Source: Clostridiales bacterium
Lineage (GTDB): Bacteria > Bacillota > Clostridia > Oscillospirales > Acutalibacteraceae
Direction of reading: 5' to 3'
DNA: 51,316 nt
Assembly (NCBI GenBank): GCA_022791355.1
Contig: JAAVYX010000089.1
Span: 1 to 51,316, forward strand
The stretch's first letter is position 1; the number at the start of each line of letters is the position of its first letter. Both the position numbers and the translations under genes were made by a program. Below the pieces are notes generated by a model. The model did no database searches. It saw only the letters and a list, made by a program, of their open reading frames with translations, and had not been told where the DNA came from. Below, piece after piece: positions 1,561 through 47,999 of the stretch.

Positions 1561-1565
1561 CAGGC

Positions 1566-1735: not shown

Positions 1736-1750
1736 AAGGAGGATGCAGGA

Positions 1751-5203: not shown

Positions 5204-5236
5204 TTTCTTCCCTGCGCATCATAGCTTTTATAGAGA

Positions 5237-6973: not shown

Positions 6974-7002
6974 TTGCAATTTATCGAAAGACAAAGTATA
7001 AT
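6974..7002 (+). promoter_or_regulatory. Sigma-A-type promoter of the fla/che operon
   Basis: TTGCAA-N17-TATAAT in an AT-rich region, about 155 nt upstream of flgB. Confidence 0.6.
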
Positions 7003-7108
7003 CACATTATACATGTATAGTCCGGTATTTGGCGGTTTTTTGGCCTGTAAGGTGGTTTATTTGAAATGTTTCGCCTTCTCGGACTAGGAAGAATCGTTTG
7101 GAAAAGGG

Positions 7109-25871: not shown

Positions 25872-27983
25872 ATGAAACGTGCTTTCGGCAATATTATTTC
25901 TCTGATGGTAGTCGTCATCGTTTTGTTTTTGATTATTCCCATTCCGCCCGCTTTATTGGACGTCTTATTGATCATCAACATTGGGCTCTCCGTTTTGATC
26001 CTCATGATCACCATGAACATCTCGGAGCCGCTGCAATTTTCTATATTTCCCTCTTTGCTGCTGATTACAACCCTGTTCCGTCTGGGAATGAACGTCTCCA
26101 GTACGCGGCTGATCCTTTCCAACGGCGGCAACGCGGGTTCGGTTATCAAGGCCTTCGGCAGCCTGATTACCAGCGGCAATATTGTAATCGGCGTCGTGAT
26201 TTTCCTGATTATCGTTTTGGTGCAGTTTATCGTTATTTCCAAAGGCGCCGAACGTGTGGCCGAGGTGGCCGCGCGGTTTACCCTGGACGCGATGCCTGGA
26301 AAACAAATGGCTATCGACGCGGACCTTTCTTCCGGCTTAATCAACGAAGAGGAAGCCAAGAATCGCCGCTATAAAATACAAAAGGAAGCCGACTTCTACG
26401 GCTCCATGGACGGCGCTACAAAGATTGTGAAGGGCGACGCCATCATGTCGCTGATCATCACCCTGATCAACTTTGTGGGCGGCGTTCTGATCGGCATGAT
26501 GAACGGTCAGGGCGATTTTACCCAGATTATGAATACCTATTCTATCGCCACGGTCGGCGACGGTCTGGTGTCCCAGATCCCCGCCCTGCTGATCTCTACC
26601 GCAACCGGTATGGTGGTAACCCGCGCCGTTTCGGACGACAGTTTGAACAAGGACGTCATCCGGCAGTTCAAAGCTCAGCCCAGAGCCATCCTTTCCACAG
26701 GTCTGGCGCTCTTTTTCTTGGCCGCCATACCCAATACGCCGCATCTGCCCCTGATTCTCTGCGGCTCCATGCTGGTGATTCTCGGTCTGGTGCTCAACCG
26801 CCGCTTGCAGCGGACCCGTCTGGCGGAGGAACTGGCGGCCGAGCAGGGAGCCAATGAAACCGCCGCCGCCGAGCTCCCCAGCGAGAGCGATTATTATAAG
26901 GACATCAACAACGTCTATTCGCTGCTGACGGTGGAACCCATCGAGATGGAGTTTGGCTACAGCCTGATTCCGCTGGTGGACGAAGCCCACGGCGGCCGGC
27001 TGATTAACCGTATTGTCATTTTCCGGCGGCAGTATGCGCAGGATATGGGCTTTGTAGTCCCCTCCATCCGGCTGCACGACTCCTCTTCCTTAGGAACCAA
27101 CCAGTACGTGGTGCGGATTAAGGGCGAAGAGGTGGCCCGAGGCGAAATCCTGGTGGACTATTATCTGGCCCTCGAGCCGGCCAGTCCTTTGGGAGAAATC
27201 GACGGTATCGAAACGGTCGAGCCGGCCTACGGCATTCCGTCCCGTTGGATCCTGCCTGAAAACAAAGAGGTGGCGGAAATTTACGGGTATACCGTCATCG
27301 ATCCCTTGTCGGTCATGCTGACCCACTTGTCTGAAACTATAAAAAGGCATACCTATGAGCTGCTCAATCGCGCCGAAACCATTTCGCTGGTAGAAAATCT
27401 GAAAAAGACTTCCCCGGAGCTGGTGGAGGAGGCCGTTCCCAATATCGTATCCTACTCCATGCTGGAAAAAATCCTGCGCAGCCTTTTGAAAGAGGGCGTG
27501 CCCATCAAGGACCTGGGAACCATCTTGGAGGTTTCGGCCGACTCGCTGAATCACGGACGGGACGTGGATATGACGGTGGAGCAGATCCGCGCCGCCTTGA
27601 GCAGAACCATCACACGCCGTTTCTGCGAGGACGGGCAGCTTAGGGTCATCACGTTGGATGCGGAAGTGGAAAAGAAAATCATCTCCTCCATTACCCGCAA
27701 CGAGCAGGGCGTGTATCTGGCTCTGGGCCCTGAGATTATGCAGCAGCTGATCGCCCAGATGACCCAGCACTTGAAAAAGTTTAACGATCTGTCCCAGATT
27801 CCGATTATCCTCGTCAGCCAGGTTATCAGAGGCTACTTCAGTAAGATGATTATGCAGTTTTTCCCCAACGTTTACGTACTGGCCTTCAATGAGATTACGA
27901 ATAATGTGCAGATACAGGCTTTGGGCAACATCACATTAGACGCCTCCGGGGCCTTTGACCAGCAGATGGGGGTGAGCGTATGA
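25872..27983 (+). CDS. flhA: Flagellar export gate protein FlhA
   Basis: 703 aa with an N-terminal polytopic domain, conserved VGDGLVSQIPALLISTATGMVVTR, and a large cytoplasmic C-terminal domain. Confidence 0.95.
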   Translation: MKRAFGNIISLMVVVIVLFLIIPIPPALLDVLLIINIGLSVLILMITMNISEPLQFSIFPSLLLITTLFRLGMNVSSTRLILSNGGNAGSVIKAFGSLITSGNIVIGVVIFLIIVLVQFIVISKGAERVAEVAARFTLDAMPGKQMAIDADLSSGLINEEEAKNRRYKIQKEADFYGSMDGATKIVKGDAIMSLIITLINFVGGVLIGMMNGQGDFTQIMNTYSIATVGDGLVSQIPALLISTATGMVVTRAVSDDSLNKDVIRQFKAQPRAILSTGLALFFLAAIPNTPHLPLILCGSMLVILGLVLNRRLQRTRLAEELAAEQGANETAAAELPSESDYYKDINNVYSLLTVEPIEMEFGYSLIPLVDEAHGGRLINRIVIFRRQYAQDMGFVVPSIRLHDSSSLGTNQYVVRIKGEEVARGEILVDYYLALEPASPLGEIDGIETVEPAYGIPSRWILPENKEVAEIYGYTVIDPLSVMLTHLSETIKRHTYELLNRAETISLVENLKKTSPELVEEAVPNIVSYSMLEKILRSLLKEGVPIKDLGTILEVSADSLNHGRDVDMTVEQIRAALSRTITRRFCEDGQLRVITLDAEVEKKIISSITRNEQGVYLALGPEIMQQLIAQMTQHLKKFNDLSQIPIILVSQVIRGYFSKMIMQFFPNVYVLAFNEITNNVQIQALGNITLDASGAFDQQMGVSV

Positions 27984-28846
27984 GTCAGGCGCAGACTGCG
28001 GCGAAGGACCCGGCGGCCAGAAGCTGGAACGCTTTTCAAACCGAGACCGACGCTATGGACACCCAAGAGCTGCTAGACGCTTACCGGACCACCGGCGATG
28101 AGAATTATAAATGGGCTCTTGTGCTCAGGTATAGAAATTCGATTGAAAAGGTCGCCCTGCAGGCCAAGGGAATTTACAGCCATTTCGTCCAGGTCGACGA
28201 TGTGATCAGCGAGGGCGTTTTGACCCTGTTGAGCGCCATCGACAAATACGACCCGGAAAAGGGCGCACGATTTGACACCTATGTTTCCAGGCGGATTCGC
28301 GGCATGATCATCGACATGGCGCGCAAACAGGATTGGCTGCCGCGAAGCCTGCGCAAACGGACAAAAGAGATCAATGTGGCGGTTACCGAGCTGTATAATG
28401 AGCTCAACCGTTATCCCAACGAGACCGAGATCGCGGAAAAATTAGGTATTACCCCGGAAAAGTATCAAAAGGAAGCCGCTGCGATTGCCTTAGGAAACGT
28501 TCTTTCCCTGGACGCTATGCTCGATATGTCCAGGGAAGACAGCGGCGCCCTGGAAATTCCGACCAAGGATGCGACTGGACAGCCTGAAGCGGCCTTGCAG
28601 GAGCTGGAGTTTCGCCAGATTCTGGCCGATGGAATACGAAGGCTGAAAAAAAACGAGCAAATTGTGCTTTCTCTTTATTATGAAAAAGATTTACATATGA
28701 AAGAGATCGCGCAGGTCATGGAAATCAGCGCACCGCGGGTTTCGCAGATCCATGCCGGCGCGATAGAAAAGCTGCAGGACTATATGAGAGCATACCTTCA
28801 TGAGACCGATTCCGCTCTGCGCGACAAAAAACGAAAGAAGGAATGA
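27980..28846 (+). CDS. sigD: Flagellar sigma-28 factor (FliA/SigD/WhiG family)
   Basis: Region 2 LLSAIDKYDPEKGARFDTYVSRRIRGMIIDMARKQDWLPR. Region 4 LSLYYEKDLHMKEIAQVMEISAPRVSQIHAGAIEKL. ATGA overlap with the flhA stop. Confidence 0.88.
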   Translation: MSQAQTAAKDPAARSWNAFQTETDAMDTQELLDAYRTTGDENYKWALVLRYRNSIEKVALQAKGIYSHFVQVDDVISEGVLTLLSAIDKYDPEKGARFDTYVSRRIRGMIIDMARKQDWLPRSLRKRTKEINVAVTELYNELNRYPNETEIAEKLGITPEKYQKEAAAIALGNVLSLDAMLDMSREDSGALEIPTKDATGQPEAALQELEFRQILADGIRRLKKNEQIVLSLYYEKDLHMKEIAQVMEISAPRVSQIHAGAIEKLQDYMRAYLHETDSALRDKKRKKE

Positions 28847-31542: not shown

Positions 31543-32466
31543 ATGTTGGAAGACGATAAAAAAGGCATCTTGTTGGAATCCGGGACCAACGAAATTGAAA
31601 TCATGGAGTTTACGATTGACAATAATCTCTATGGGATCAATGTGGCCAAGGTACGCGAAATTATGATGTCTGAGCCGGTCAAGGCTATGCCCCACGCGCA
31701 TCCGGCGGTGGAAGGTATTTTCAAGCCGCGGGACATTGTGCTCACTGTGGTGAATCTCCCGAAATATCTCAACGGGGTTGAGGGGGGAAAAGCGGAAAAA
31801 GATCTGTTCATCGTCACGAATTTCAATAAAATGTACGTGGCTTTCCGTGTGCATACGGTGGTGGGAATCAGCCGTATTTCCTGGAAGGATATCCAAAAAC
31901 CCGACGATACGGTATCGGGCGGCGAGGAAAGCGTCGCGACCGGTATCGCCCAGTGCGGCGACGATTTGGTAACGATTTTGGACTTTGAACGGATCGTGGC
32001 CGAAATCGCGCCGCAGACGACCATCCAGATTTCGGAAATCGAAAAGATGGGATATCGCGAATGCCGCGAAATGCCGGTATTTGTAGCGGAGGATTCTATC
32101 TTACTGACTAAGATGATCGAAGAAGCGCTGCATAAATCGGGCTATATCAACGTGCGGCTATTCTCCAACGGCCAGGACCTGTGGGACGCTTTGACAGCCG
32201 CTAAGCGCAATGGAAATATTAGGAACACCTGCTCCATTGTGATCACCGACCTGGAAATGCCCCAGATGGACGGGCATCGCCTGACCAAACTGATCAAAAG
32301 CGATGCCGAGCTCAAGGAACTCCCGGTGATTATATTCTCGTCCCTGATCACGGAGGAAATGCGGGTGAAGGGAAAAGAGCTGGGGGCGGACGAGCAGCTC
32401 AGCAAGCCCGAGATCGCGCATCTGGTCAACGTGATGGATCACCTTCTCACAGGCAAGCCGGCTTAA
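31543..32466 (+). CDS. cheV: Chemotaxis coupling protein CheV (CheW domain plus receiver domain)
   Basis: N-terminal CheW-like domain (EIEIMEFTIDNNLYGINVAKVREI). C-terminal REC domain (VFVAEDSILL...IVITDLEMPQMDG...SKP). Confidence 0.88.
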   Translation: MLEDDKKGILLESGTNEIEIMEFTIDNNLYGINVAKVREIMMSEPVKAMPHAHPAVEGIFKPRDIVLTVVNLPKYLNGVEGGKAEKDLFIVTNFNKMYVAFRVHTVVGISRISWKDIQKPDDTVSGGEESVATGIAQCGDDLVTILDFERIVAEIAPQTTIQISEIEKMGYRECREMPVFVAEDSILLTKMIEEALHKSGYINVRLFSNGQDLWDALTAAKRNGNIRNTCSIVITDLEMPQMDGHRLTKLIKSDAELKELPVIIFSSLITEEMRVKGKELGADEQLSKPEIAHLVNVMDHLLTGKPA

Positions 32467-32491: not shown

Positions 32492-33778
32492 ATGGGCAGC
32501 AAGTATATTATGAAGCAGCCGATTAAGGACCCTAAGGGGGCGATTATTGGCCATGAGATATTGTACCATGGAGAGAATCAGGCTTTCAGCGGAGAGGACC
32601 CAAGCACCGCCAATGACTTTGCCGCGGCCGATACGATTTACAACTTTTTGACCCAAAACACCGCCAAAGCGCTGAAGGGCTCTCTGAACTTTATGACCTT
32701 TACCACCACGCTTCTGATGAAGAAAACGCCGCGGCTGTTTGCCAAATCGGAGCTGGTCATTCAGATTGACGACAGCGTGATTATTCATCCCCTGTCCATG
32801 CATTTTGTACAGCAATATGCAAAGGAAGGCTACAAAATCGCGGTGAACGAATTTCAGTTTTCGCCGCGGTATCTGGGCCTGATGGATAGTATCGACTATA
32901 TTAAGATCAACAGCAAAACCACCAATGATCTCACCATGCGCAATATCATTGAGATCGCGCACAGCATGAACAAAAAATGCATTGTGACGGATATTGACTC
33001 TGAAGAACGGTATCAAAGAGCTGTCTCTATGGATGCGGACGCGATGGAGGGAACCTATGTGGCCGAGATTATGACGGCCAAGGTCCATTCCAGCGCGTAC
33101 CTGCAAAGCAACTTCTTCCGTCTAATGGTAGCCGTTACGCGGGACGAACCCAATGTGGAAGAAATCGAGCAGCTCATCAGTACCGACGTCAGCCTGAGCT
33201 ACGGTCTGCTCAAGATGGCCAACTCGGTTTATTTCGCCCTCCGTCACCGCGCTACCACCATTCACCAGGCGGTTATGACCCTGGGTCTGGGCCAGCTCAA
33301 GCAGTGGATTTATCTGCTTAGCACCAGCGGCACCGACAATACCATCGACGCCGGAACAGAGGAATTTTTGAAGCTTTCCTTTATGCGGGCCAACTTTGCC
33401 AGCGAATTGATGGCTTACGCCAAAGATATGCCCATTTCCAAGTCGGAAGCATATCTGATGGGCATGTTCTCCACCCTCAATTATTTAATTGACGCGCCTA
33501 TGGAGGAGATCCTGGGAGAAGTGGTTGTGGCGGACGAGATCCGGGAAGCTCTGTTGCACAAAACCGGCCGCTGCGGCCAGCTGTACGACCTGATTCTTAG
33601 CTATGAGGCGGCGGACTGGGAGAAAATTACCAGTCTGGCTGCGGAGCTTGGCATTCCGGACCAGTATCTGACCAACGTGTATTTCGTGTGTATGGATAAT
33701 GTGAATACCCTTTGGGAACAGCTGACCAACGCTTACAGCACGGGAGAGGACGATACCGCTTCCGATGAACAGGTGTAA
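32492..33778 (+). CDS. EAL-like (apparently degenerate) plus HDOD domain signalling protein (COG3434/YuxH-like architecture)
   Basis: N-terminal QPIKD...GHEILYH EAL-fold start. C-terminal HDOD pattern LSYGLLKMANSVYFALRHRATTIHQAVMTLGLGQLKQWI. Last gene of the + strand operon. Confidence 0.7.
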   Translation: MGSKYIMKQPIKDPKGAIIGHEILYHGENQAFSGEDPSTANDFAAADTIYNFLTQNTAKALKGSLNFMTFTTTLLMKKTPRLFAKSELVIQIDDSVIIHPLSMHFVQQYAKEGYKIAVNEFQFSPRYLGLMDSIDYIKINSKTTNDLTMRNIIEIAHSMNKKCIVTDIDSEERYQRAVSMDADAMEGTYVAEIMTAKVHSSAYLQSNFFRLMVAVTRDEPNVEEIEQLISTDVSLSYGLLKMANSVYFALRHRATTIHQAVMTLGLGQLKQWIYLLSTSGTDNTIDAGTEEFLKLSFMRANFASELMAYAKDMPISKSEAYLMGMFSTLNYLIDAPMEEILGEVVVADEIREALLHKTGRCGQLYDLILSYEAADWEKITSLAAELGIPDQYLTNVYFVCMDNVNTLWEQLTNAYSTGEDDTASDEQV

Positions 33779-33822
33779 TTCAAGAATTATGCGGCTGGGT
33801 TCTGTTTTTAAACAGACGAAAT

Positions 33823-33853
33823 AAAGGCGCGGCGAAAGCCGCGCCTTTATTCG
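33823..33853 (+). terminator. Rho-independent terminator ending the fla/che operon
   Basis: AAAGGCGCGGC-GAAA-GCCGCGCCTTT, an 11-bp stem with a GNRA loop, followed by ATT. It is A-rich upstream, so it could act in both directions. Confidence 0.8.
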
Positions 33854-33888
33854 CAAAAAATGGCCGACAGCTCAACATATCGGCCATA
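33854..33888 (-). terminator. Rho-independent terminator of the minus-strand parA-comFB pair
   Basis: On the minus strand, ATGGCCGA-(12 nt)-TCGGCCAT is followed by TTTTTT. Confidence 0.65.
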
Positions 33889-33949: not shown

Positions 33950-34879
33950 TTATTGCTCATGCAGGGGATTGTCCATAACGATTTTACAGGCGCGTAGAAT
34001 CTGCGCGGTTACTTCGGCATGGTATCGTTCGTTATAAATGATAACCCGAGGATTGCGTTCGTTTTCCGGCGCTACGATATACTTGGGAACGAGATTATTC
34101 AAAGCGATGGCCTTCACATCCGCCACGCATTTGGGACAGTCGCACAGGCCGAACATTTTGATATATCGGCCGGCGCTGTCTTCCACCAGGGCCTGCATGA
34201 TGTTGATATAGCTTGTATCTGGCGCCGGGGGCTCTGCGGCGGGAACAGGCTGGGCGGCAGGCGCCGGCGGCTGTTCGGCCTGTACAGGCGGCGCGGGCTC
34301 TGATTGCGGCTGTCCTGCCGGCGCGGCCGGCGGGACGGCAGAATCTTCCGCTTCCAGGACAGCGGCTGGCGGTTGGGATGCGGGCATAGAAGCGGCGGCC
34401 GTTTGAGTTTCTTGCTGGACCTCTTGGACCGCGGGCTGCTGCGCGTCAGGAATGGCGGCGGCTTCCGTCTCGGGTTGCGGGGGAATTTCCTGCTCAGTGA
34501 AGAGAGCGGCCTCCTCGGGCTTGGCGGAGACGGGTTCCGGTGCGGAAAGCGTCTCCGGCGGCTCAGGTTCGGAGATGGGCGCAGAGGCGTTTTCCGCCTG
34601 TTCCATTTCCTCCTGGGACAGGGCCGGCTCGTCTTCCAGCAAATCCTCTAAAGCGTCTTTGATTTGCGAGGTAATTTCCAAGTCGGAGGGCAGGGAGGGG
34701 ACAATGGCTTGGGGCGCGGTAGGAACAGGGGCTGCGCCGCCCGTCGTTTGAGCCGCCGCTTCCTGCGATTCGGCCTGCGCGGCGGCTTGGTCCGCTCCGT
34801 CCGCCTCCTTATAGTTTTTACTGATCAGATTCATCACATGGGCCGTTTTGCTGGTGTTGATTACTTTCTTTTTCGCCAT
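33950..34879 (-). CDS. ComFB-domain protein with an N-terminal basic peptide and a ~190-aa Pro/Ala/Glu/Gln-rich disordered linker
   Basis: MAKKKVINTSKTAHVMNLISK at the N-terminus, then low-complexity sequence. The C-terminal ~85 aa (YINIMQALVEDSAGRYIKMFGLCDCPKCVADVKAIALNNLVPKYIV) match the ComFB CxCxxC...ALN.LPP.Y pattern. Confidence 0.7.
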   Translation of the reverse strand: MAKKKVINTSKTAHVMNLISKNYKEADGADQAAAQAESQEAAAQTTGGAAPVPTAPQAIVPSLPSDLEITSQIKDALEDLLEDEPALSQEEMEQAENASAPISEPEPPETLSAPEPVSAKPEEAALFTEQEIPPQPETEAAAIPDAQQPAVQEVQQETQTAAASMPASQPPAAVLEAEDSAVPPAAPAGQPQSEPAPPVQAEQPPAPAAQPVPAAEPPAPDTSYINIMQALVEDSAGRYIKMFGLCDCPKCVADVKAIALNNLVPKYIVAPENERNPRVIIYNERYHAEVTAQILRACKIVMDNPLHEQ

Positions 34880-34897
34880 GGTAACATTCCTTTTCTT

Positions 34898-35677
34898 TTA
34901 TTTCTTAGAAGGCAGGGGAAACCGGTCGCCGGCTATTACGGCCACGACCTCCTGCAAGTCCTCGGCCGGCTTGCAGCGGGGAGCGTAGGTAATCACGCTC
35001 TGCCCGTGCGCGGGCGCCTCCGCAACGTTGATGCTGCGGCGGATCTTGGTTTCAAATACCCGGCTGTCCAATTGGCGGGCCACCTCCTGCGCCAGCTCCA
35101 GCACCTCCTGGGACAGGATGAGACGCGGGTTGAATTTGTTGAGCAGAATGCCCAGCACCTTTAAATGGGGATTAAAGGTATCGCGGACGCTGATGATGGT
35201 CTCCTGCAGCTGGGTAATACCCACAAGGCTGAGAATTTCGGCCTCCATCGGCACAATCAGGGAATCGGTGGCCACGTAGGCGTTGATGGTCAAAACATTG
35301 AGGGAGGGCGGCGTATCGATAATGATAAAGTCGTATTCCTTGCGAATGGGGCGCAGGCATTGGTCCAGCATGAATTCCCGGCGCGCCGAATTGAATTCCA
35401 CCTCTGCGGCCGAGAGGGTGATGTCCGCAGGCAGAATGTCGCCATATTCGGAGGAGACAATGGCGTTCTCGATCGATTGATTGCCCTTGAGCACATCGCA
35501 GACCGTATAGCCTTCGCCAATATCGAGCCCTAAATTAAAGCCCAGATTGCCTTGAGGATCGAGATCAATGCCCAGAACACGCGCACCTCGCTGATGCAGC
35601 CCGCAAATAAGAGCGGAAGCGGTGGTCGTTTTGCCAACGCCGCCCTTTTGATTTGTGATGGTGATGATTTCTGACAA
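34898..35677 (-). CDS. Orphan ParA/Soj-type (deviant Walker A) P-loop ATPase
   Basis: ITITNQKGGVGKTTTASAL (KGGxGKT), GIDLDPQGNL, and Walker B DFIIIDTPPS. No ParB gene is adjacent. The stop is 18 nt upstream of the ComFB-domain gene. Confidence 0.85.
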   Translation of the reverse strand: MSEIITITNQKGGVGKTTTASALICGLHQRGARVLGIDLDPQGNLGFNLGLDIGEGYTVCDVLKGNQSIENAIVSSEYGDILPADITLSAAEVEFNSARREFMLDQCLRPIRKEYDFIIIDTPPSLNVLTINAYVATDSLIVPMEAEILSLVGITQLQETIISVRDTFNPHLKVLGILLNKFNPRLILSQEVLELAQEVARQLDSRVFETKIRRSINVAEAPAHGQSVITYAPRCKPAEDLQEVVAVIAGDRFPLPSKK

Positions 35678-35720: not shown

Positions 35721-35747
35721 TAAGTTATTCTATCATATTGTCGATAA
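35721..35747 (+). promoter_or_regulatory. Sigma-28 (SigD)-type promoter candidate for fliD-fliS-fliT
   Basis: TAAG-N15-GTCGATAA compared with the consensus TAAA-N15-GCCGATAA, about 200 nt upstream of fliD. Confidence 0.45.
35727..35735 (-). promoter_or_regulatory. Extended -10 (TGATAGAAT) candidate promoter for parA-comFB
   Basis: Minus-strand TGaTAGAAT lies about 50 nt upstream of the parA ATG. It overlaps the spacer of the + strand sigma-28 candidate. Confidence 0.3.
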
Positions 35748-35945
35748 AAATAAAAGAGGGGTAAAAAGTAATTTTTTACAACAGGCAGCAAGCTAAGACA
35801 GAAAACAGCCATGGGGAACAGAGCTGTTTTGGCTTTTGCCGCAAGGCTTTTATACCCTGGAAGAGCATTGCCGCCGTTGCGGGCGAAGGCATAGTATCAG
35901 AATGATTTTTATAAGTATAGTAAGAATAAAAAGAGGTGTGATACA

Positions 35946-38402
35946 ATGGCATCTATCAACAGTTTAGGCAGTTCCTCCAGTATTTATGGTTCCAGAAACG
36001 TCATGTCGGGTCTGGCCAGCGGTATGGATACCGAAACCTTGATCGAAAATGCGGTAGCCGGTATCCAGGCCAAGATTGCCGCTCTTCAAAAGAAAAGCAC
36101 GAAGGTTGAATGGCAGCAGGAGGCTTATAGAAAGATTATCGACCAGATTCTGAACTTCTCCAGCTCCTACAATTCCTATTCGTCTAGCAACAACCTCTCC
36201 TCCGCCAGCTTTTTTAACAGCGCCTATATGGTGACCACCGCCGGCAAATATGCCGACAAGATTTCGGCTACCGGCAAATCGTCCAGCGATATCCGGATCT
36301 TAGGCGTCAAGCAGCTGGCTACTTCGACCAAGTACTCGGTGTCCGGCGTGGGCGGAAGCACTGCCGATGTGCCTACCATTTCCGGAAGCGAGCTGGATCT
36401 TAACGAAGAGATGAAGGTGAGCAAGATTTCCGGCTCCCTCACCATAAACTATGGCGGCAGCCGTGCCTACACGGTAAAGTTTGGCGAGTTGGACGCCTAT
36501 GAAAATGCCGACGAGCTGGCCGACGCCATTACCGAACAGCTGAAGGATCAGAAGATGACCTTGTCGGACGGTTCCTCCGTCCTGGTCAGCAGCAGGATAG
36601 GCGTTTCGGTCAAGGACGGCAACATTGAATTTTATGACAAGGCGGGCGCGGGCAATAAAGTTTATGTCCATTCCGCCAGCGGCGACTTGGCGGAAACGCT
36701 GCATGTGGATCCTACCCAAAAGTCTTCCTCGCTGGAGGTGGGCAACACGCCGCTGTATGAGACCCCGACCAAGGGCGAATATTTGAAGGACAAGGAGATC
36801 AAGTTCACCCTTGACGGCGTGACCAAAACCATCTCTATCGATAAAGCCTACAGCGATCAGGACGAACTGATCGCAGACATAAACAAGAAGCTTTCCAGCG
36901 CCTTTGGCGCGGGTAAGATTTCGGTTTCCGCCAATTATGACAAGGGGCTTGTTTTCACCACCGCCAAGGGATCTACCATGAGTATTGAGGGCGGTAAGGC
37001 CTTGGGACTGTCCACCGATTCCGAGCTGTCCTATCTCGATATGAGCAAAAAGCTGGGCGATATCATCAAGGACGGCGATTGGGACAGCTTTGCCAAGGCC
37101 GAGGCCACGGGCAAAGTCACCAAGGTCGAGGCGACCGAAACCGACCCAGCTTATTATGTGGACGAAAAGGGAAACCGGGTAGAACAGGCCGACGACGACA
37201 ATTGGTATCGGATTGACGAAAAGGGCGATTTCCTTTATAAGTTTGAGCTCAACGGTCAGACTATTGGAAACTTCTCCAAAAACAGCCAGCTGGAAAATGT
37301 TACGGTAGCCATCAATAATAATACCACCGCCGGCGTAAACGTCAGCTATTCCAAGACTACCAATCAGTTCCATTTCGTTGCGGAAGAATCCGGCTCCGCC
37401 GGCAAGGTCGACTTTGGCGAGGGCCTGGCGCAGAAGCTGTTCGGTCAGGGCGGCAGCAATGTCGTCAAGGAGGAGCAGGGCGTAGACGCCATATTCTCCA
37501 TGTCGGTGGACGGGAATGTCTATGACGGCATCAGCCGCAGCAGCAATACCTTTAATGTGGACGGTATGGATATTTCGCTGAAGGGAACCTTCGGCGAGTT
37601 TAACGGCGAAAAGTTGCAGGATGTGGCGGAAGCGGAAAAGGACGCCGTTACCTTTACTTGTTCGGCGGACGCGGATAAAATCGTGGACGCCATCAAGACT
37701 ATGGTGGAGGATTACAACGCCATGGTCACCGAGATCAAAAACGCATATTCCACCATGCCCGCCCAGAAATCCAACGGCAGCCGGTACGAGCCCTTAAGCG
37801 ATAAGGATATTGAAGGTATGACTGAATCGGCCGTGAAGTCCTATGAGGAAAAGGCTAAAGAGGGCATCCTGTTTGCCGATCGGGACTTGTCCAATCTTTA
37901 CAGTAAGCTTACCTCCATCATCTCGCCGGCCGGGCAGGACGGGGCCGACCTCCGCGCTATGGGTCTGGAGGTGTCCTACAGCAACGGTCTGAGCGTCATC
38001 AAGCTGGACGAGGATAAGTTGCGCGCGACCCTGAATACCAATCCGGATAAAGTGAAGGACGCCTTTACCAAATCGGTGGCCAACGGCGCCGAGACCGACG
38101 GTTTGATGGCATCCTTGAAAAATACGCTGGAGGTTTACGCCAAGTCTACCGGCAGCGATAAGGGTATACTGGTGACCAAAGCCGGTTCCGCTAAGGTGCC
38201 CGCGTCGGTTTACCAAAATACCCTTCAGACGAGACTGGATGAGTACGACAAGCAAATCGAAAAGTGGCAGGATAAGCTGAGCGACCGGGTTGATTATTAC
38301 ACCAAGCAGTTTACCTTGCTGGAACAGCTTGTCGCTGAGATGAATTCCCAAAGCTCCGCCCTGATGGGGCTGATGGGAGGAATGGGAACGGCTTCCGTAT
38401 AG
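35946..38402 (+). CDS. fliD: Flagellar filament cap protein FliD (long form, 818 aa)
   Basis: GLASGMDTETLIENAVAGIQAKIAALQKK at the N-terminus. C-terminal coiled-coil YTKQFTLLEQLVAEMNSQSSALMGL. Confidence 0.9.
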   Translation: MASINSLGSSSSIYGSRNVMSGLASGMDTETLIENAVAGIQAKIAALQKKSTKVEWQQEAYRKIIDQILNFSSSYNSYSSSNNLSSASFFNSAYMVTTAGKYADKISATGKSSSDIRILGVKQLATSTKYSVSGVGGSTADVPTISGSELDLNEEMKVSKISGSLTINYGGSRAYTVKFGELDAYENADELADAITEQLKDQKMTLSDGSSVLVSSRIGVSVKDGNIEFYDKAGAGNKVYVHSASGDLAETLHVDPTQKSSSLEVGNTPLYETPTKGEYLKDKEIKFTLDGVTKTISIDKAYSDQDELIADINKKLSSAFGAGKISVSANYDKGLVFTTAKGSTMSIEGGKALGLSTDSELSYLDMSKKLGDIIKDGDWDSFAKAEATGKVTKVEATETDPAYYVDEKGNRVEQADDDNWYRIDEKGDFLYKFELNGQTIGNFSKNSQLENVTVAINNNTTAGVNVSYSKTTNQFHFVAEESGSAGKVDFGEGLAQKLFGQGGSNVVKEEQGVDAIFSMSVDGNVYDGISRSSNTFNVDGMDISLKGTFGEFNGEKLQDVAEAEKDAVTFTCSADADKIVDAIKTMVEDYNAMVTEIKNAYSTMPAQKSNGSRYEPLSDKDIEGMTESAVKSYEEKAKEGILFADRDLSNLYSKLTSIISPAGQDGADLRAMGLEVSYSNGLSVIKLDEDKLRATLNTNPDKVKDAFTKSVANGAETDGLMASLKNTLEVYAKSTGSDKGILVTKAGSAKVPASVYQNTLQTRLDEYDKQIEKWQDKLSDRVDYYTKQFTLLEQLVAEMNSQSSALMGLMGGMGTASV

Positions 38403-38421: not shown

Positions 38422-38799
38422 ATGGATACAAAGGGATTGCAGCGTTATCAAAAGGACGCCGTTGATACTATGACGCAGGGCGAGCTGCTGCTTATGCTTT
38501 ATGACGAGCTGGTAAAACGGCTCACAAGAGCCGAACTGGCCTTGGATAAGGAGGACTACGCCCTCTTTGAGGCGTCGGTGGACCGCAGCGTTGAAATCAT
38601 CTGGTATCTGGACGATACGTTGGATAAGCAATATTCCATTGGCCGGGATTTAGCAAAGCTATATGACTTTTTTTGCTATGAGCTCAGCCGAGTGAAGGTA
38701 GGCCGCAACCGCACCGAGCTTGCAAGAATGCAGAAGATGGTCGGTGAACTGCGGGACTCTTTCCGAGGCGCACAGCAAAACAATGATTCGGGAAAGTGA
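38422..38799 (+). CDS. fliS: Flagellin-specific export chaperone FliS
   Basis: YQKDAVDTMTQGELLLMLYDELVKRL...YELSRV pattern, positioned after fliD. Confidence 0.88.
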   Translation: MDTKGLQRYQKDAVDTMTQGELLLMLYDELVKRLTRAELALDKEDYALFEASVDRSVEIIWYLDDTLDKQYSIGRDLAKLYDFFCYELSRVKVGRNRTELARMQKMVGELRDSFRGAQQNNDSGK

Positions 38800-39194
38800 G
38801 CGTTGCCATGCAGGCTGAAACCTTAATGAACGCGCTGGTTTTAACCAAGCGTATAGGAAATCTGCTCAATGAGATCATGGATATCTCTCAGCAGTTGGCC
38901 GAGGCGGTTGACCGCGGCGATGAAGTAACGGCTGGGATGCTCATTTCCATGCGCTCAGAACCCATCGATAAGCTGAAGGTTGCCCGCCGTGCGCTGCAGG
39001 AGCTGGTGGAAGAAGCCGGCCCGGCGGACCGGGAGAGGCTATCTGCATTGCTGGGGGGCGGCAAAGCGGCGGACAGCCGGGAAGAGCCCCTGGAAAAGCA
39101 GGCGGCCTCCAATGCACGACAATCGGAAAAGGTGGTTACCTTTGAGCGCGTCCTGAATCGAAAGGTCACAAGAGACAAATCGATTTTTCAATAA
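38796..39194 (+). CDS. Putative flagellar export chaperone (FliT/FlgN-like)
   Basis: 132-aa helical protein overlapping the fliS stop, in the position B. subtilis fliT occupies. No strong motif. An alternative ATG lies at 38808. Confidence 0.4.
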   Translation: MSVAMQAETLMNALVLTKRIGNLLNEIMDISQQLAEAVDRGDEVTAGMLISMRSEPIDKLKVARRALQELVEEAGPADRERLSALLGGGKAADSREEPLEKQAASNARQSEKVVTFERVLNRKVTRDKSIFQ

Positions 39195-39197
39195 CAA

Positions 39198-39239
39198 GCG
39201 TCAGCGTCATCCCTTTTTGATAGGGGATGACGCTGACGC
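39198..39239 (+). terminator. Strong 16-bp stem-loop after the fliD-fliS-fliT unit
   Basis: GCGTCAGCGTCATCCC-(10 nt)-GGGATGACGCTGACGC. There is no U-tract after the stem. Confidence 0.5.
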
Positions 39240-39400
39240 GCAGCTATCGGAACCGGCGGCGTTAAGCTGTTTGCCTGGAAAGGAATAGGGAGAACGGTTC
39301 CGGGGCTAGAAGGGCTTTTAGCCCGCCGTATAGCTGTTTCGCGTATCGTGGGCGTTTGCCGTTTTGACAGAGCTACTATGAAATGCAGAGGGATCCATTT

Positions 39401-40156
39401 ATGCCGGATATTATTCTGGAGGGCGTTAGTAAAATATATAAGGATCGTCACAGAGGTCGTTGGAGGGGGCGCTTAAAAGCAGGAGATCTTGATCTCACAG
39501 TTCGTGCGGCGGAGGACCTGGACCTTACTATTCGACAGGGGGAATTTGTTTTTGTCGTAGGCAGCAGCGGCGCTGGGAAAAGCACCCTGCTACGATTGAT
39601 CAGCGGCGGCGTAAAGCCGGATAAAGGGAAGGTTTACCTGGACGGATACAGTATGGACACCTTTCACTCCTGGAACAGGAGCTATCGGATCAATGTCTTC
39701 GGACAGGTTTGGCAGGAACCCACTCTGGTCAGAAAAAAAACGGTGGAGGAAAATCTGCGGCTTGTGGCGAATATTCACGACTGGATGCAGCGGGGACCTC
39801 ATAAGGCTGTGAAAGAACGCGTGAATAAGGTGTTGGGGCTTGTGGGAATGTCGGGATCCAACGATTTGTTCCCGGTGGAGCTGTCCGGCGGAGAAGTGCG
39901 GCGGGTGGAACTGGCCAGAGCCTTGATCAACAGTCCTTCCATTTTGGTGCTGGATGAGATCACCAATAACCTGGACGACGACAATATTTGGGATATTCTC
40001 CAATTGCTAATCGAGCTTAATGAAAAGGGAACCACAATTATTATGGCCACCCACGCCAGTCAATACGTGAATATCATGTGCCGCAGGGTGATCACCTTAG
40101 TAAACGGACGCATCCGTAGCGACGTGCAGAGGGGAAAATACGGCGATATGGTTTAA
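39401..40156 (+). CDS. Orphan FtsE-like ABC-transporter ATP-binding protein
   Basis: Walker A GSSGAGKST, signature LSGGEVRRV, Walker B ILVLDE, H-loop ATH. No permease or FtsX gene is adjacent. Alternative ATG at 39383. Confidence 0.75.
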   Translation: MPDIILEGVSKIYKDRHRGRWRGRLKAGDLDLTVRAAEDLDLTIRQGEFVFVVGSSGAGKSTLLRLISGGVKPDKGKVYLDGYSMDTFHSWNRSYRINVFGQVWQEPTLVRKKTVEENLRLVANIHDWMQRGPHKAVKERVNKVLGLVGMSGSNDLFPVELSGGEVRRVELARALINSPSILVLDEITNNLDDDNIWDILQLLIELNEKGTTIIMATHASQYVNIMCRRVITLVNGRIRSDVQRGKYGDMV

Positions 40157-42475: not shown

Positions 42476-44194
42476 ATGAGGAAAAAAAGAAGCTTTGCGG
42501 AAAGGTTTTTTCCATGGAAGAATGGCAAGAATTCTGAAAACGCCGCGGAGGAACAGCTGCAGTCTATTGAAATGGAGGAGATTCCTCCTCCCGAGAGGCC
42601 CAAGGATGAAATAAAGGTTCAAGCCGGCCGGCAGCTTACGCAGGCCTGGCAAAAATGGCGCGGGGACGCGGCCACGCTTTGGCTAACCGTATTCGGCGGC
42701 GAAAACGGCTGCAAATTGCATCTCGACCCCTCGACGCTGGAGCCTGAGGGGAGCAGACTATCCGACCAGCTGGAAAAGGTTGCGGAAAAATATTTGCAGG
42801 CATGGGAGAAAGCGGCCAAAGAAACTGCGGCGGAGCCGGGCGCGCTGTGTAAAGTCTATATGTCCGCCGACCGGATGGCGGCTTGGCTTTTCCTGTTTCC
42901 ACCTTTTTCCCCGCAGGATAAAATTTCATTGGAAGCGCTCAACGAAGCCGTGCGGAAGAGCGGCGTTACGACTGGAATCGATCAGGCCGCGATAGACTAT
43001 GTATTTCAAAATCAGCCCTATTTTGAGCTCGTGCCTCTGGCCTGCGGCACAATGCCCGTTGAGGGCGCGGACGGCACCATAAGGGAACTATATCCCCGGC
43101 AGACCGAGGACGAAATCAAGACGGATGAAAGCGGCGCGGTCGATTACCATATGAAAAATTATATCCAGGCGGTCCAAAAAGGGGACATTATTTGCGACAT
43201 CCTTCCGCCCACAGAGGGTACGCCCGGCATGCGGGTGGACGGTCAGGCCGTCAAACCCCATCCTGTGAAGCCGGCCAAGGTTCTTCTTGGCGCTAACACC
43301 GCCTTTACGGACGACAAACAGCATGTGATTGCCAAAATGGACGGACATCTGGAATACAGTCATTCCACCTTTTCGGTTCGCTCCATTTTAGATGTGGCGG
43401 GCGACGTGAATTACGAAACCGGCAATATTGAATATCATGGGGATGTTCATATTCACGGCAATGTCTGCGAGGGATTTTCGGTCCGTGCGGCGGGCTCGGT
43501 CATAATTGACGGCGCTGTGGAGTCGGCGCATGTGGAGGCGGGCGGAGACGTTATTGTGGCAGGCGGCATTCTAGGCGATAACCGCGCTCTGATAAAGAGC
43601 CGCAGTAGCGTCCGCGCAAAGTACTTGGAAAACTGCGTTGTATATGCCGGCGAAGGCGTATACGCAGACTGCGCCATAGCCTCGCAAATCGGCTGTGATA
43701 ACAGTATCGTAATCACCACCGGACGGGGAACGGTCATCGGCGGAACCTTGACGGCCGGTAAGCTGGTTAAGGCGCATATCGTAGGCTCTAAGTCAGGCAA
43801 AAAAACAAGGATCATTCTGGGGGTTCTACCCTATACCGAGCAGGAAGGCGCGGCCGGCGAGGCCGAGCTGGAAGAAATCCATCAAGAGCTTGAGAAGCTG
43901 GAGGAAGAAATTCGCCGGTTGGAACGGCAATCGGGAAGGGCAGACGCCAGCGCTCAGCTTGGAAAGGCGAATCTGCGCAAATCCGTCCTCACCATGAAGG
44001 AGGAGCGGGCCTTAAAAAGCAAGCAAAGGCTGGAATCGGCCAAGCCGGATTTAAAGCTGTGCCGGTTTGAATGCAGCGTTGTATACCCTATTACGAAGTT
44101 AACCATTCAGGAATACGTACATTACTTTGAAGATATGAAAAACAGCTGTATCGCGACGCTGGACCTGCAAAGCGGAGAAATTAAATTTCACTGA
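42476..44194 (+). CDS. DUF342 / FapA (flagellar assembly protein A)-family protein
   Basis: FapA-N-like VYMSADRMAAWLFLFPP...ISLEALNEAVRKSGVTTGID. Beta-helix repeats GDVHIHGNVCEGFSVRAAGSVIIDGAVESAHVEAGGDVIVAGGILG. C-terminal coiled-coil. Confidence 0.75.
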   Translation: MRKKRSFAERFFPWKNGKNSENAAEEQLQSIEMEEIPPPERPKDEIKVQAGRQLTQAWQKWRGDAATLWLTVFGGENGCKLHLDPSTLEPEGSRLSDQLEKVAEKYLQAWEKAAKETAAEPGALCKVYMSADRMAAWLFLFPPFSPQDKISLEALNEAVRKSGVTTGIDQAAIDYVFQNQPYFELVPLACGTMPVEGADGTIRELYPRQTEDEIKTDESGAVDYHMKNYIQAVQKGDIICDILPPTEGTPGMRVDGQAVKPHPVKPAKVLLGANTAFTDDKQHVIAKMDGHLEYSHSTFSVRSILDVAGDVNYETGNIEYHGDVHIHGNVCEGFSVRAAGSVIIDGAVESAHVEAGGDVIVAGGILGDNRALIKSRSSVRAKYLENCVVYAGEGVYADCAIASQIGCDNSIVITTGRGTVIGGTLTAGKLVKAHIVGSKSGKKTRIILGVLPYTEQEGAAGEAELEEIHQELEKLEEEIRRLERQSGRADASAQLGKANLRKSVLTMKEERALKSKQRLESAKPDLKLCRFECSVVYPITKLTIQEYVHYFEDMKNSCIATLDLQSGEIKFH

Positions 44195-44583
44195 TTGGAC
44201 GATACGGCGACGTATGCGTCCTTCTCAGAGACGGCTTGCAAGCCCCGCGGGGTAAACGGACGAAGCTGTGATTTTTTTCCGGCCGGGAACAAGGGCTGCG
44301 GTTGAGGGCCATTCTCTGCTCTGAAACAAGCCCGACCTTTGGCATATAGTATACGCTATGCGTCAATTTCTGCGAATCCCTGGATTGGCTCCGCATAGCG
44401 GAGCGTCCCTTGGGGGAAGCATGGAGCGCTTTTTGACGTTCACAGAGATGGGCTGCGCGAAAATCTATATGGAAAATCGCGGCCCGGGCATAAAGAGATC
44501 GATTTGCAATTTTCCAAACAAACGGCTTCCTCCAGACGCTAGCCAGGCGGTTGCGGGTTGACCGGAAAGGGGCATTTGCTTCT

Positions 44584-46597: not shown

Positions 46598-47428
46598 ATG
46601 TGGATATTAAAGAAAAACAACCCTACAGATTCGTCCGCGGATGAGAGGGAAGCGGCGCAGCCGGCCTATAAGGCGGCTGCGGCATCCCAGTTTATAAACG
46701 TTCGGAAAAATATAGCCATCGTTCTGTGCGCCGCTGCACTTTTCTGCCTATTGACGGGCTGCCAGTCCAAGGGGGAAGAGGAAGGGCTTATCGTCGAAAC
46801 ATATGCGATCGAGTCGGAAAGCGTGCCCGCTATGCAGGTAGAGGACAACGTGGAGGTGTCGATGACCGACCCCGTCACTTATGCGTACATAGGTTGGGAA
46901 AACGCGGGAGAATCGGTGTCCCAATATGTCGAGTCCATGACGGCCGAAGAAAACGGTTTTTCAGTGGCGAAAGCCAAAGAAGCGCCAGATTATACCAAAG
47001 AAAAGGGCGACGTGAAGCTTACCAAGCAAGCGGTAAGCGACGAAAATAAGCGGATTGCCCTGGAGTTGAGCTGGTATCCCGGCATCTGTACGGTAGCCGT
47101 TAGTCTGGAAGATGCCGCGGGCGGCGCAAACGGGGAAGTCGCTGAGCAAGAGACCCTGACCCAGACCGAAGCGGTCGAAATGATCCAAGGCCTGCGCCCA
47201 GCGGTTCTGGAGCTCAGCGGAGACAGTATGGACGCTTATAACGTTTATGTCAGAAATGGGCTGGTTGACGTCAACCAGGAGGCGTGTATCTGGCTGGAAA
47301 TCTATACCGATGCAACCAGGGCAGGGACAAACGCTCATATGGGAACCTACTATCTCAGTCGGGACGGCAAGCGGCTGTATTCTCTAAACCATGCGGACGA
47401 TTCAATCAAGAAATTAGAGCTTAGCTGA
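46598..47428 (+). CDS. Membrane-anchored or lipoprotein-like protein of unknown function
   Basis: 276 aa. The hydrophobic segment IAIVLCAAALFCLLTGC ends in a lipobox-like LTGC, but it follows an unusually long ~40-aa N-terminal region. The gene starts 17 nt after the actin-like gene. Confidence 0.55.
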   Translation: MWILKKNNPTDSSADEREAAQPAYKAAAASQFINVRKNIAIVLCAAALFCLLTGCQSKGEEEGLIVETYAIESESVPAMQVEDNVEVSMTDPVTYAYIGWENAGESVSQYVESMTAEENGFSVAKAKEAPDYTKEKGDVKLTKQAVSDENKRIALELSWYPGICTVAVSLEDAAGGANGEVAEQETLTQTEAVEMIQGLRPAVLELSGDSMDAYNVYVRNGLVDVNQEACIWLEIYTDATRAGTNAHMGTYYLSRDGKRLYSLNHADDSIKKLELS

Positions 47429-47506: not shown

Positions 47507-47999
47507 ATAAAAAAGAAGATCGTCTGCCTCCAAGGCGGAATAGAGCTTTGGGGGACAAACATTTATCGCTCGTTAGGCTGTTTTCGCTGCGGCCGGTGGG
47601 CAACCGAGTTGCGCCCGGCTATGCGGACCGTCCCCTAAAGGACGGCTTGCTGACGGCCGCCAAATCCAAGAACGCCGTTAGTACCCTTTATTAGTACCCG
47701 CTCCCCCCGTTTGGTCTGTCCGTGAAGGCCGCCTTTTGGGCTGCTGCGCTATTCCCCAAGGCAGAAGGCAGCGGCCCGCTCCAAGAAGCGGTTTGAAGCG
47801 GCCAAGCTTGGGTCGCCGCTGGACTCTTTGGCGTTTTACAGATGAACGGCGGCAGAGGAGAGCGTTTGGGCGCAGCTGGTCGAGCGAAGCTCGACAACTC
47901 GCCGGCCAGCCGCAGGACCAAACGGCGTAGATGTTTTTTTCGCGGTGAGGATCATTCAAAGATATTAGAGCGCATTTCAAATTCGGGAGGTATTTCCGC

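Follow-up and report, generated by a model that had tools for sequence, protein, structure and literature searches.

Why would a flagellar gene cluster contain a ParA-type ATPase next to a protein that ends in a ComFB domain? The question is raised by a 51,316-nt stretch of DNA from a member of the Acutalibacteraceae (Clostridiales bacterium, assembly GCA_022791355.1, contig JAAVYX010000089.1), which we refer to throughout as the window. On its minus strand, a parA-like gene (34898..35677) encodes a deviant Walker A ATPase of the Soj/ParA type with 259 amino acids (aa), and just downstream another gene (33950..34879), which we call comFBp, encodes a partner protein of 309 aa, ComFBp, which comprises a tag, a second helix, an acidic linker, and a ComFB domain. 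We report that this pair is a conserved operon in the motility gene set of Oscillospiraceae-type Clostridia and that ComFBp has three conserved modules (the tag, the second helix, and ComFB), not two. As to what the pair does, we lean, by a little more than an even chance, toward a dedicated ParA/MinD-family (A/D) ATPase with its own adaptor, working by the mechanism that we lay out below.

The A/D ATPases organize chromosomes, division sites, carboxysomes, flagella, and chemoreceptor arrays, and many of them are considered orphans because their partners are too diverse to recognize; ComFBp would be a defined new family of partners. ComFB was recently shown to be a widespread receptor for cyclic di-GMP (c-di-GMP) and cyclic di-AMP (c-di-AMP) that inhibits flagellar motility, and the pair suggests a testable route from second messenger to motility apparatus. 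The pair also bears on how flagellation is controlled in peritrichous and other flagellated Clostridia that have no flhF or flhG in their flagellar locus. Full-text literature searches for ComFB together with ParA, flagellar terms, or Oscillospiraceae returned nothing relevant. Databases label the ParA orthologs as “ParA family protein” or “chromosome partitioning protein” and call the homologs of the partner only “ComFB family protein.”

A conserved operon among flagellar genes

The two genes are in the same frame, and comFBp begins 18 nt past the stop codon of parA. The start codon of parA is TTG, which lies nine bases 3' of a GGAGG ribosome-binding site, and that of comFBp is ATG; both products have Pfam matches. 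A check of the open reading frames (ORFs) agrees with the initial annotation, which was made from the DNA sequence alone, on the coordinates, strand, and spacing of the two genes.

A search of a set of 5.8 billion proteins gave 353 homologs of ComFBp, and the best 120 of these 353 are 210-364 aa long and all carry a C-terminal ComFB domain (PF10719). Relatives of ComFBp are present in 316 species genomes (from one motif scan of 185,579 species-representative genomes). Named hosts, with common gut genera among them, include Oscillibacter, Flavonifractor plautii, Pseudoflavonifractor, Lawsonibacter, Flintibacter, Pygmaiobacter, Neglecta, Acutalibacter, and Butyricicoccus, and the hosts span at least the families Oscillospiraceae, Acutalibacteraceae, and Butyricicoccaceae. 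Gene neighborhoods were taken from 80 fetched loci (L001-L080), and in all 80 a ParA ortholog lies directly upstream of the partner gene on the same strand, mostly with a gap of 20-40 nt. These upstream orthologs are 57-84% identical.

In the window, the pair is divergent from fliD, which encodes the filament cap (35946..38402, plus strand; FliD_C at 3.8e-35, with FliD_N) and is followed by fliS (identified by Pfam). It is convergent with the end of the fla/che operon, that is, with cheV (31543-32466, plus strand) and with the last gene of that operon, whose product has EAL-like and HDOD domains (32492..33778, plus strand; HDOD at 5.9e-20, EAL at 1.9e-10). This arrangement had been read from the DNA and is confirmed by our Pfam map, which covers most of the larger ORFs of the window rather than every ORF. 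Among the relatives, 67 loci extend far enough to show this side, and in at least 62 of them fliD is the adjoining divergent gene; as tblastn gave partial hits in three of the remaining five, the true count is about 65. On the other side, 59 of 71 loci have the end of the fla/che operon (the EAL-HDOD gene or cheV) converging on the pair from within 5 kb, and the EAL-HDOD gene directly adjoins comFBp in 45 of 71. The gene for a methyl-accepting chemotaxis protein (MCP) is syntenic in most relatives as well. The position of the pair beside motility genes, first noticed in this one stretch, is conserved among its relatives.

The same loci have no flhF or flhG, as had been suspected. The gap between flhA and the following sigma factor gene is at most 105 nt in 59 of 59 loci (in the window, these genes span 25872-28846, plus strand), which leaves no room there for flhF or flhG, unlike in the fla/che operon of Bacillus subtilis. 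Also, the ATPase of the pair is the only ORF with the motif KGGxGK[ST] in 81 of 81 loci. Within the window, the Pfam scan of most of the larger ORFs found no FlhF, FlhG, MinD, or ParB, in agreement with the earlier remark that there is no ParB nearby.

Three conserved modules in the partner protein

Our residue counts for the ComFBp family are over 267 non-identical members, and our counts of charge and composition are over 73 sequences. At the N-terminus is a basic tag (aa 1-22; 34814..34879, minus strand), and in the alignment it contains what we call motif 1, which is K11-T-A-H-V-M-N-L-I19 in the window. The family consensus, [SN]-K-T-A-H-V-[ML]-N-L-[LI]-[STRA], corresponds to residues 10-20 of the window's ComFBp and is preceded by lysine-rich residues. 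Its K, T, and V are present in all 267 members, A in 266, N in 265, and H in 257, and the net charge of the tag ranges from +3 to +8. Given the family alignment, AlphaFold2 (AF2) places a low-confidence helix at aa 10-21, with a predicted local distance difference test score (pLDDT) of 50-60 over aa 1-20. The initial annotation had pointed to a lysine-rich peptide here. The tag is indeed basic, but the conserved element is motif 1 and not the run of lysines.

The second module, motif 2, is an acidic amphipathic helix with the consensus PxI[LI]xSLxxDxxxSxQIKxALExxL (aa 58-82; 34634..34708, minus strand), which was recognized from the alignment and from AF2. L77 is invariant in the alignment, and I73 and A76 are nearly so. 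AF2 predicts a helix at aa 64-82, with pLDDT of up to 89 in this block. A profile search with the N-terminal region retrieves motif 2 along with motif 1.

Between motif 2 and ComFB lies an acidic linker of hypervariable length, rich in Pro, Ala, Glu, and Gln (aa 83-221; 34217..34633, minus strand), which the alignment and AF2 indicate to be disordered: its pLDDT is around 50, and its sole predicted secondary structure is a short low-confidence helix at aa 89-94. The whole region from the tag to ComFB, motif 2 included, is 110-466 aa long, with a net charge of -10 to -104 and a median content of 64% P/A/E/Q, and the total length of ComFBp varies from 211 to 626 aa across species. The spread in the length of this region suggests that the linker expands and contracts quickly. 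In the window, the linker contains three imperfect 39-nt (13-codon) tandem coding repeats (34221-34332). The low-complexity linker of about 190 aa that was originally described is therefore a tether rich in these four residues, as stated, but it also contains a second conserved helix (aa ~58-82). The broader comparison to the partners of ParA (a basic disordered tag, an acidic linker, and a C-terminal ComFB) survives, in that this layout is conserved across the relatives.

Is the tag ever attached to something else? When 1.84 billion representatives were exhaustively searched with a profile of the N-terminal module, 365 matched, and none of these profile matches joins the tag to another cargo domain. 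Of the 135 matches that were newly returned, 94 have CxCxxC (a motif of the ComFB domain, described below), and all proteins above 233 aa are among these 94; the other 41, which lack it, are short contig-end or frameshifted fragments. Because CxCxxC is found in every long match, we conclude that the tag occurs only on ComFB. ComFB is the sole Pfam domain of ComFBp, which has no CheW/SH3-like AIF domain, and the AF2 model is all-helical apart from two short strands.

The ComFB domain

The ComFB domain occupies aa 222-309 (33953..34216, minus strand) and includes a Zn-type CxCxxC site. PF10719 matches residues 226-305 at 4.6e-15 (55.9 bits, as compared to a gathering cutoff of 25), and a profile of the ComFBp family finds the structure 4WAI by sequence at 1.1e-07. 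AF2 gives a pLDDT of 95-98 over aa 222-305, and in a Foldseek comparison to the PDB, the only meaningful matches were 4WAI (ComFB of B. subtilis; TM 0.72-0.74, root-mean-square deviation 2.1-2.7 Å) and 8HJA (CdgR of Synechocystis with c-di-GMP). All of these agree with the domain assignment that was first made from the sequence.

Residues C246, C248, C251, D254, A257, and Y267 of the window's ComFBp are conserved in the family. The CxCxxC is found in 267 of 267 members and is equivalent to the Zn cysteines C25, C27, and C30 of B. subtilis ComFB (BsComFB; numbering as in PMC12448109). Candidates for a fourth Zn ligand are a cysteine in the last helix (260 of 267) and a P-x-H motif (262 of 267).

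In BsComFB, c-di-GMP is contacted by D33, A36, L37, N40, K/R41, V47, and Y55 (PMC12448109). We mapped the c-di-GMP and dimer residues of BsComFB and of its Synechocystis counterpart (SyComFB) onto the family; the equivalent of Y55 could not be aligned. The equivalent of D33 is Asp in 99% of members, and those of A36 and Y46 are Ala and Tyr in 100%. The equivalent of L37 is aliphatic (L/I/V) in 79% and Tyr or Phe in 21%, that of V47 is hydrophobic, and that of N4 is invariant in a 38-sequence alignment (A1; N226 in the window). Published affinities of ComFB-family proteins range from 0.17 μM to 284 μM (PMC12448109). Binding of a cyclic dinucleotide by ComFBp is plausible but not assured, and we would put the chances at about even.

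The known phenotypes of ComFB proteins concern flagella, pili, and competence, and ComFB controls flagellar motility in both B. subtilis and Shewanella oneidensis (PMC12448109). The effect of BsComFB depends on c-di-GMP and is on the function of flagella rather than on their production, through a target that is not known (10.1101/2025.07.11.664319).

The ATPase and its putative partner-binding pocket

The ATPase matches AAA_31 at 4.4e-52 and CbiA at 1.8e-26. Its deviant Walker A motif, KGGVGKTT, is at aa 11-18, and D38, D40, and D121 are present; these three, like K11 and K16, do not vary across the paired ortholog rows (alignment A4). The motif and these domain matches, which the initial annotation had suggested looking for, bear out its description of a Soj/ParA-type protein. 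The closest solved structure is 8RAY (1.2e-47), which is cited in a study of ParA from Myxococcus xanthus (MxParA), and the next are a mycobacterial ParA-like protein and Soj from Thermus and from Helicobacter (H. pylori), at 1e-33 to 1e-39, while MinD structures match at only 1e-11 to 1e-15. Judged by these comparisons, the ATPase is Soj/ParA-like and not MinD/FlhG-like. It has no N-terminal extension and begins 2 residues before strand 1. It is about 41% identical to B. subtilis Soj; the Soj sequence used for this figure has no exact match in the databases, and our Soj numbering is approximate. The approximate numbering does agree with our mapping of MxParA R238.

Functional residues were mapped using the alignment to 8RAY and a study of MxParA with its ParB (10.1101/2025.03.14.642875). 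In the pocket for the partner peptide, MxParA V116 corresponds to V93 in the window (V/L in the family), L150 to L126 (invariant L), L152 to V128 (I/V/L), L155 to I131 (I/V), and L192 to F168 (F/Y); L187 corresponds to S163, which is T, A, or S in the family and so is non-hydrophobic. At the site for the basic residue of the peptide, Y81 corresponds to C60 (Y in 78 of 81 family members), E82 to D61 (D/E), D110 to T87 (M/L), and E117 to E94 (E in 75 of 81). MxParA Y81 contacts the basic residue of the partner peptide (10.1101/2025.03.14.642875). The conservation is partial, and from these correspondences the family seems to keep most of the pocket. Non-specific DNA binding uses a basic C-terminal surface (R189 and R218 in Soj, R238 in MxParA); the equivalent of Soj R189, R185, is invariant, and so is the nearby R213.

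A probable contact between the tag and the ATPase

The partners of A/D ATPases contact them via an N-terminus that is disordered and carries positive charge, and they bind the cargo with their remaining part (PMC10241942, PMC11407121). In M. xanthus, ParB residues L11, R13, L15, L18, and I19 (within aa 11-19) form a short helix at the ParA dimer's edge, and having two ParB peptides per ParA dimer raises avidity (10.1101/2025.03.14.642875). ComFBp has the features of such an adaptor: it is adjacent to its ATPase in 80 of 80 loci, its N-terminus has a charge of +3 to +8, and that region has low confidence in AF2. Furthermore, V15, L18, and [LI]19 of motif 1 match the spacing of hydrophobic residues 15, 18, and 19 within aa 11-19 of M. 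xanthus ParB. Compared to the full pattern, Phi-x-[RK]-x-Phi-x-x-Phi-Phi, position 11 is Lys instead of a hydrophobic residue and position 13 is Ala instead of Arg or Lys. We suggest that the tag is the same type of motif as in ParB but has a different specificity code, which would be expected if cross-talk with Soj-Spo0J must be avoided.

The common variation in the tag is between M16 (42 loci) and L16 (31 loci). It covaries with five of the nine variable columns of the pocket and basic-residue site, with normalized mutual information of 0.75-0.84. Those five columns rank 16-37 among 197 variable ParA columns, which corresponds to a hypergeometric P of about 0.013, computed post hoc; we consider this suggestive only, for reasons given below. 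Taken with the motif and the pocket, we are fairly confident that the tag contacts ParA.

A proposed mechanism

How might the pair work? In the reading that we favor, the basic N-terminus of ComFBp would fold into a short helix in the pocket of ParA and would stimulate the hydrolysis of ATP, much as the peptides of ParB, ParP, McdB, and MinE act on their own ATPases. The C-terminal ComFB would form a Zn-stabilized dimer, so that each adaptor would carry two tags. This end of the protein would also sense c-di-GMP (or c-di-AMP) and bind the target, and the long, acidic, proline-rich linker would be a flexible tether between ParA and the target. The likeliest target would be some part of the flagellar apparatus, and the level of the second messenger would then determine how many flagella there are, how they are spaced or inherited, or how active they are, in loci that have neither FlhF nor FlhG.

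Because the pair has a fixed place in a flagellar cluster that lacks flhF and flhG, a flagellar target is our best guess, and the EAL-HDOD neighbor agrees with this. That the pair acts on motility seems likely to us, and the arrangement suggests that a second messenger controls flagella via a ParA-type machine. A bolder version is that ComFBp is the first cyclic-dinucleotide receptor to serve as a cargo adaptor and activator of ParA, that c-di-GMP at the interface of the ComFB dimer switches the coupling to the basal body or motor, and that the pair gives Oscillospirales a second-messenger-gated control of flagellar number, spacing, or inheritance in place of FlhF/FlhG; we regard this as possible but, on balance, unlikely. 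If it is true, then the gating of ComFBp by c-di-GMP would be analogous to the CTP-gated clamps of ParB, and it would reveal what kind of target ComFB proteins act on to control motility. Apart from this bolder version, the 9-residue invariant tag and its cognate ATPase are a candidate orthogonal “luggage-tag” pair for synthetic positioning.

Several observations weigh against the favored mechanism. The equivalent of MxParA R238 (Soj R218) is N217 in the window and S, A, D, or N in the family. The substitution R238E abolishes non-specific DNA binding by MxParA (10.1101/2025.03.14.642875), and the absence of this arginine argues against simple nucleoid-based positioning. Nor does the ParA family have a C-terminal amphipathic membrane helix: the tails are short, variable, and proline-rich. 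With both the arginine and the helix absent, the matrix on which the ATPase would work is ambiguous and could be the nucleoid, the membrane, a landmark, or none of these. Within the pocket, the window's own protein has C60 (codon 35498-35500, minus strand) instead of the usual tyrosine, and the cysteine recurs in a 99%-identical metagenomic ParA protein (P0121). The single basic residue of motif 1, K11, is two positions out of register with R13 of ParB. Also, M16 and L16 divide along the same line as two deep subfamilies, and covariation with this split is stronger in 14 other ParA columns, which is why the covariation is no better than suggestive.

Similar cautions apply to the ComFB end and to the motility link. 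The equivalent of BsComFB N40 is Asn in 55% of members (including the window's) and Thr or Ser in 44%, and the equivalent of K/R41 is mostly Asn, His, or Glu, with Arg in about 4%. A ComFB protein can bind c-di-GMP weakly, as that of Treponema denticola does, with a Kd of 284 μM (PMC12448109). In two loci, there are no flagellar genes within 10 kb of the pair. One is a metagenome-assembled genome of Butyricicoccus (L024:8518-10303), in which the neighbors are an SLH (S-layer) protein, YlmH, and sulfite reductase; the other is “Clostridiaceae bacterium strain 9” (L062:7555-10267), in which the partner has 526 aa and the neighbors are SpoIIE, SbcC, and a C39 peptidase. Finally, we rejected a sigma-28 (SigD/FliA) promoter for parA: even the relaxed pattern TAAA-N13-17-CGATA is found at 0 of 71 loci, so membership in the late flagellar regulon is unsupported.

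Other explanations

The pair might instead be a regulatory switch in which the binding of ComFB to a transcription factor, a sigma factor, or an anti-sigma factor would depend on c-di-GMP and ParA would be an ATP-dependent antagonist or co-regulator, without any spatial movement. FleN (FlhG) of Pseudomonas, which works with the c-di-GMP receptor FleQ, is a precedent. An ATPase that lacks both the key DNA-binding arginine and a membrane helix may have no matrix for patterning, and the pair does adjoin the operon of the flagellar sigma factor and is divergent from late genes. Also, cyanobacterial ComFB/CdgR binds the CRP-family proteins SyCRP1/2, and c-di-GMP disrupts these complexes (10.64898/2026.03.27.713163). 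Nevertheless, we consider a switch improbable: BsComFB inhibits the function of flagella and not their production, the parA-comFBp unit encodes neither a DNA-binding domain nor a partner regulator, and a tether of 110-466 aa with a ParB-like tag is typical of cargo adaptors. We find it just as hard to believe in a c-di-GMP-dependent brake or clutch on the flagellum, in which ComFBp would bind the motor and ParA would sequester or release ComFBp, so that the output would be the activity of the motor instead of the placement of flagella. When bound to c-di-GMP, BsComFB lowers both swimming and swarming, while the flagella are kept, and it does so independently of MotI (PMC12448109, 10.1101/2025.07.11.664319). 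Binding to the motor has been proposed for BsComFB. The conserved equivalents of D33, A36, and Y46 and the EAL-like/HDOD neighbor, which is adjacent in 45 of 71 loci, would also fit a brake. But a brake leaves unexplained what a stand-alone ComFB (about 100 aa) would need the invariant tag, the second helix, and the long tether for, and loci that lack flhF/flhG suggest a role in assembly or placement.

Could the target be chemoreceptor arrays, as in ParC/ParP or PpfA/TlpT, with ComFB docking to the arrays in place of a CheW-like domain? ComFBp does share the plan of the ParP adaptor, cheC, cheD, and cheV are beside the pair, and an MCP is 4.5 kb away and is syntenic in most relatives. We think that this is very unlikely, as ComFBp has no CheW/AIF-like domain, as cheA and cheW are absent from the locus (by the Pfam map of most of the window's larger ORFs), and as the known phenotypes of ComFB proteins do not involve arrays. 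We give almost no credence to the idea of a chromosomal, plasmid, or prophage ParA for ordinary DNA segregation whose place beside a ComFB gene is a coincidence. It is true that the best ParA matches are chromosomal ParA/Soj proteins and that the databases name the orthologs accordingly. However, no ParB is encoded among the scanned ORFs of the window, no site comes within 3 mismatches of parS, and iterons are absent from the intergenic regions (the repeats that were found are the coding repeats in the linker of comFBp); we rejected an origin from a mobile element, as ComFBp has no tblastn matches in plasmids or phage; and the ATPase is adjacent to ComFBp in 80 of 80 loci, at a fixed place in a chromosomal flagellar cluster. 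The initial annotation had named a nearby partition site or a plasmid or phage link as a sign of DNA segregation, and we found neither. Together with the loss of the R238/R218-type arginine, this effectively excludes a role in DNA partition.

Comparison to known systems

Among the ParA/partner systems that we compared it to, the pair seems closest in design to ParC/ParP. As in Vibrio, the genes for an ATPase and for an adaptor of the same plan are neighbors in a region of motility and chemotaxis genes. ParC relies on HubP, a polar landmark. In ParP, an N-terminal domain that binds ParC is followed by a long linker rich in proline and by a cargo domain at the C-terminus (PMC5706961). The two adaptors have no sequence similarity, the cargo end is ComFB in ComFBp instead of the CheW/SH3-like AIF domain of ParP, and the host of our pair belongs to a Gram-positive lineage of Clostridia. 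FlhF/FlhG (FlhG is also known as FleN or YlxH), a system for the number and placement of flagella, resembles the pair in that an A/D ATPase is in the flagellar cluster, and its niche is vacant in the loci of the pair. Unlike FlhG, the ATPase of the pair lacks both an activator extension at the N-terminus and a membrane-targeting helix at the C-terminus, and it is not downstream of flhA/flhF; ComFBp, unlike FlhF, is not a GTPase of the signal recognition particle type.

The pair shares with ParA(Soj)-ParB(Spo0J)-parS a motif at aa 11-19 of a disordered N-terminus, alike in its hydrophobic positions 15, 18, and 19 and in having one basic residue, and most of the peptide pocket. But ComFBp has no helix-turn-helix or CTPase domain, the basic residue is K11 instead of R13, and there is no parS. 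McdA/McdB, which positions carboxysomes, is also similar, with a ParA-type ATPase and a small adjacent partner that has a basic disordered N-terminus and whose remainder associates with a protein cargo (PMC11407121). The cargo and the fold of the partner are unrelated, however, and McdA binds nucleoid DNA, while DNA binding by the pair's ATPase is doubtful. As for other ComFB proteins, ComFBp resembles BsComFB and Synechocystis Slr1970/CdgR in its fold, its CxCxxC, its equivalents of D33, A36, and Y46, and its link to motility. Most ComFB proteins are stand-alone proteins of about 100 aa, to which ComFBp adds a tag, a helix, and a linker, and in ComFBp the equivalent of K41 is not basic. In the main text of a census of ComFB proteins, the architectures include N-terminal helical subdomains, tandem domains, and fusions to PATAN, REC, CheR, GGDEF, or Ig-like domains, and that text, which covers several gene neighborhoods, mentions neither a ParA tag with a disordered region and ComFB nor a ParA neighbor (PMC12448109).

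Putative promoters and terminators

Upstream of parA is a conserved promoter-like element, CTCT...TTTTTATCGACA...TGaTAGAAT (35727..35758, minus strand). In the 250 nt upstream of parA across the fetched loci, its layout is CTCTAT-N~7-TTTTTTATCGACATATAGTATAAT. Of 72 upstream regions, 61 contain the core, TTTTTATC/TTTTATCG, and 43 contain TATCGACA; the -10-like hexamer is about 60 nt before the start of parA. The element resembles an extended -10 promoter of the sigma-A type with a spacer that is conserved to an unusual degree, possibly an operator. Ahead of the flgB operon is a promoter of canonical form, TTGCAA-17-TATAAT (6967-7003, plus strand), whose spacer holds TTTATCGAAA, which resembles the conserved TTTATCGACA of the parA promoter. 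The likeness may be due to chance, as there are 7 near-matches in the window and 2.6 would be expected.

At the other end, a terminator scan found two terminator-like hairpins (33860-33887 and 33819-33852, minus strand) that end the parA-comFBp unit. The second is a perfect palindrome, with a 14-nt inverted repeat (33820-33851), and is shared with the convergent fla/che operon. We also considered a riboswitch for c-di-GMP or another ligand and rejected it, as no Rfam family reaches the threshold anywhere in the window; the best match in the spacer between parA and fliD is a meaningless hit to a snoRNA (E = 0.18).

Other genes of the window

The flagellar operon, on the plus strand, begins with flgB, flgC, fliE, fliF, fliG, fliH, fliI, fliJ, fliK, flgD, flgE, and flbD and continues with motA, motB, fliM, fliY, cheY, fliP, fliR, flhB, and flhA. 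After flhA come a sigma-70-family factor (the sigma factor gene mentioned above), two rod genes, cheC, cheD, cheV, and the EAL-like/HDOD gene. In the product of this last gene, the EAL match has 40.9 bits and covers only positions 113-235 of the profile, which is the C-terminal half of the model, and a phmmer search against solved structures returned HDOD structures only and no EAL structure. Inspection by eye shows degenerate catalytic motifs (DDFG is NEFQ, EGVE is TDID, and KID is KIN), from which we think that the EAL half is probably inactive. It is possible that the protein binds c-di-GMP, which would put a c-di-GMP link right beside the pair.

Beyond the pair, the order is fliD, fliS, a 132-aa ORF, an ABC ATPase, the MCP, FapA, and a protein similar to FtsA/PilM. 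The 132-aa ORF has no Pfam match, and the ABC-type ATPase is alone, with no adjacent permease (38796-40156, plus strand, for the two); these two genes are in the same order in most relatives. Four ORFs toward the end of the window (46598-47428 on the plus strand and 47678-48088, 48066-48710, and 49587-50987 on the minus strand) have no Pfam match. Upstream of the flagellar operon, the region 212-6764 encodes an M23 peptidase, an M14 carboxypeptidase with a peptidoglycan-binding domain, and a protein of 1172 aa with F5/8 type C and type I dockerin domains, and the dockerin hints at a cellulosome-like display on the cell surface. Downstream of the MCP (42476-46581, plus strand), FapA has 572 aa and is followed by the actin-fold protein of 676 aa (FtsA/PilM/MreB-like); most of the 80 relatives have the gene for this actin-fold protein in synteny with their flagellar locus.

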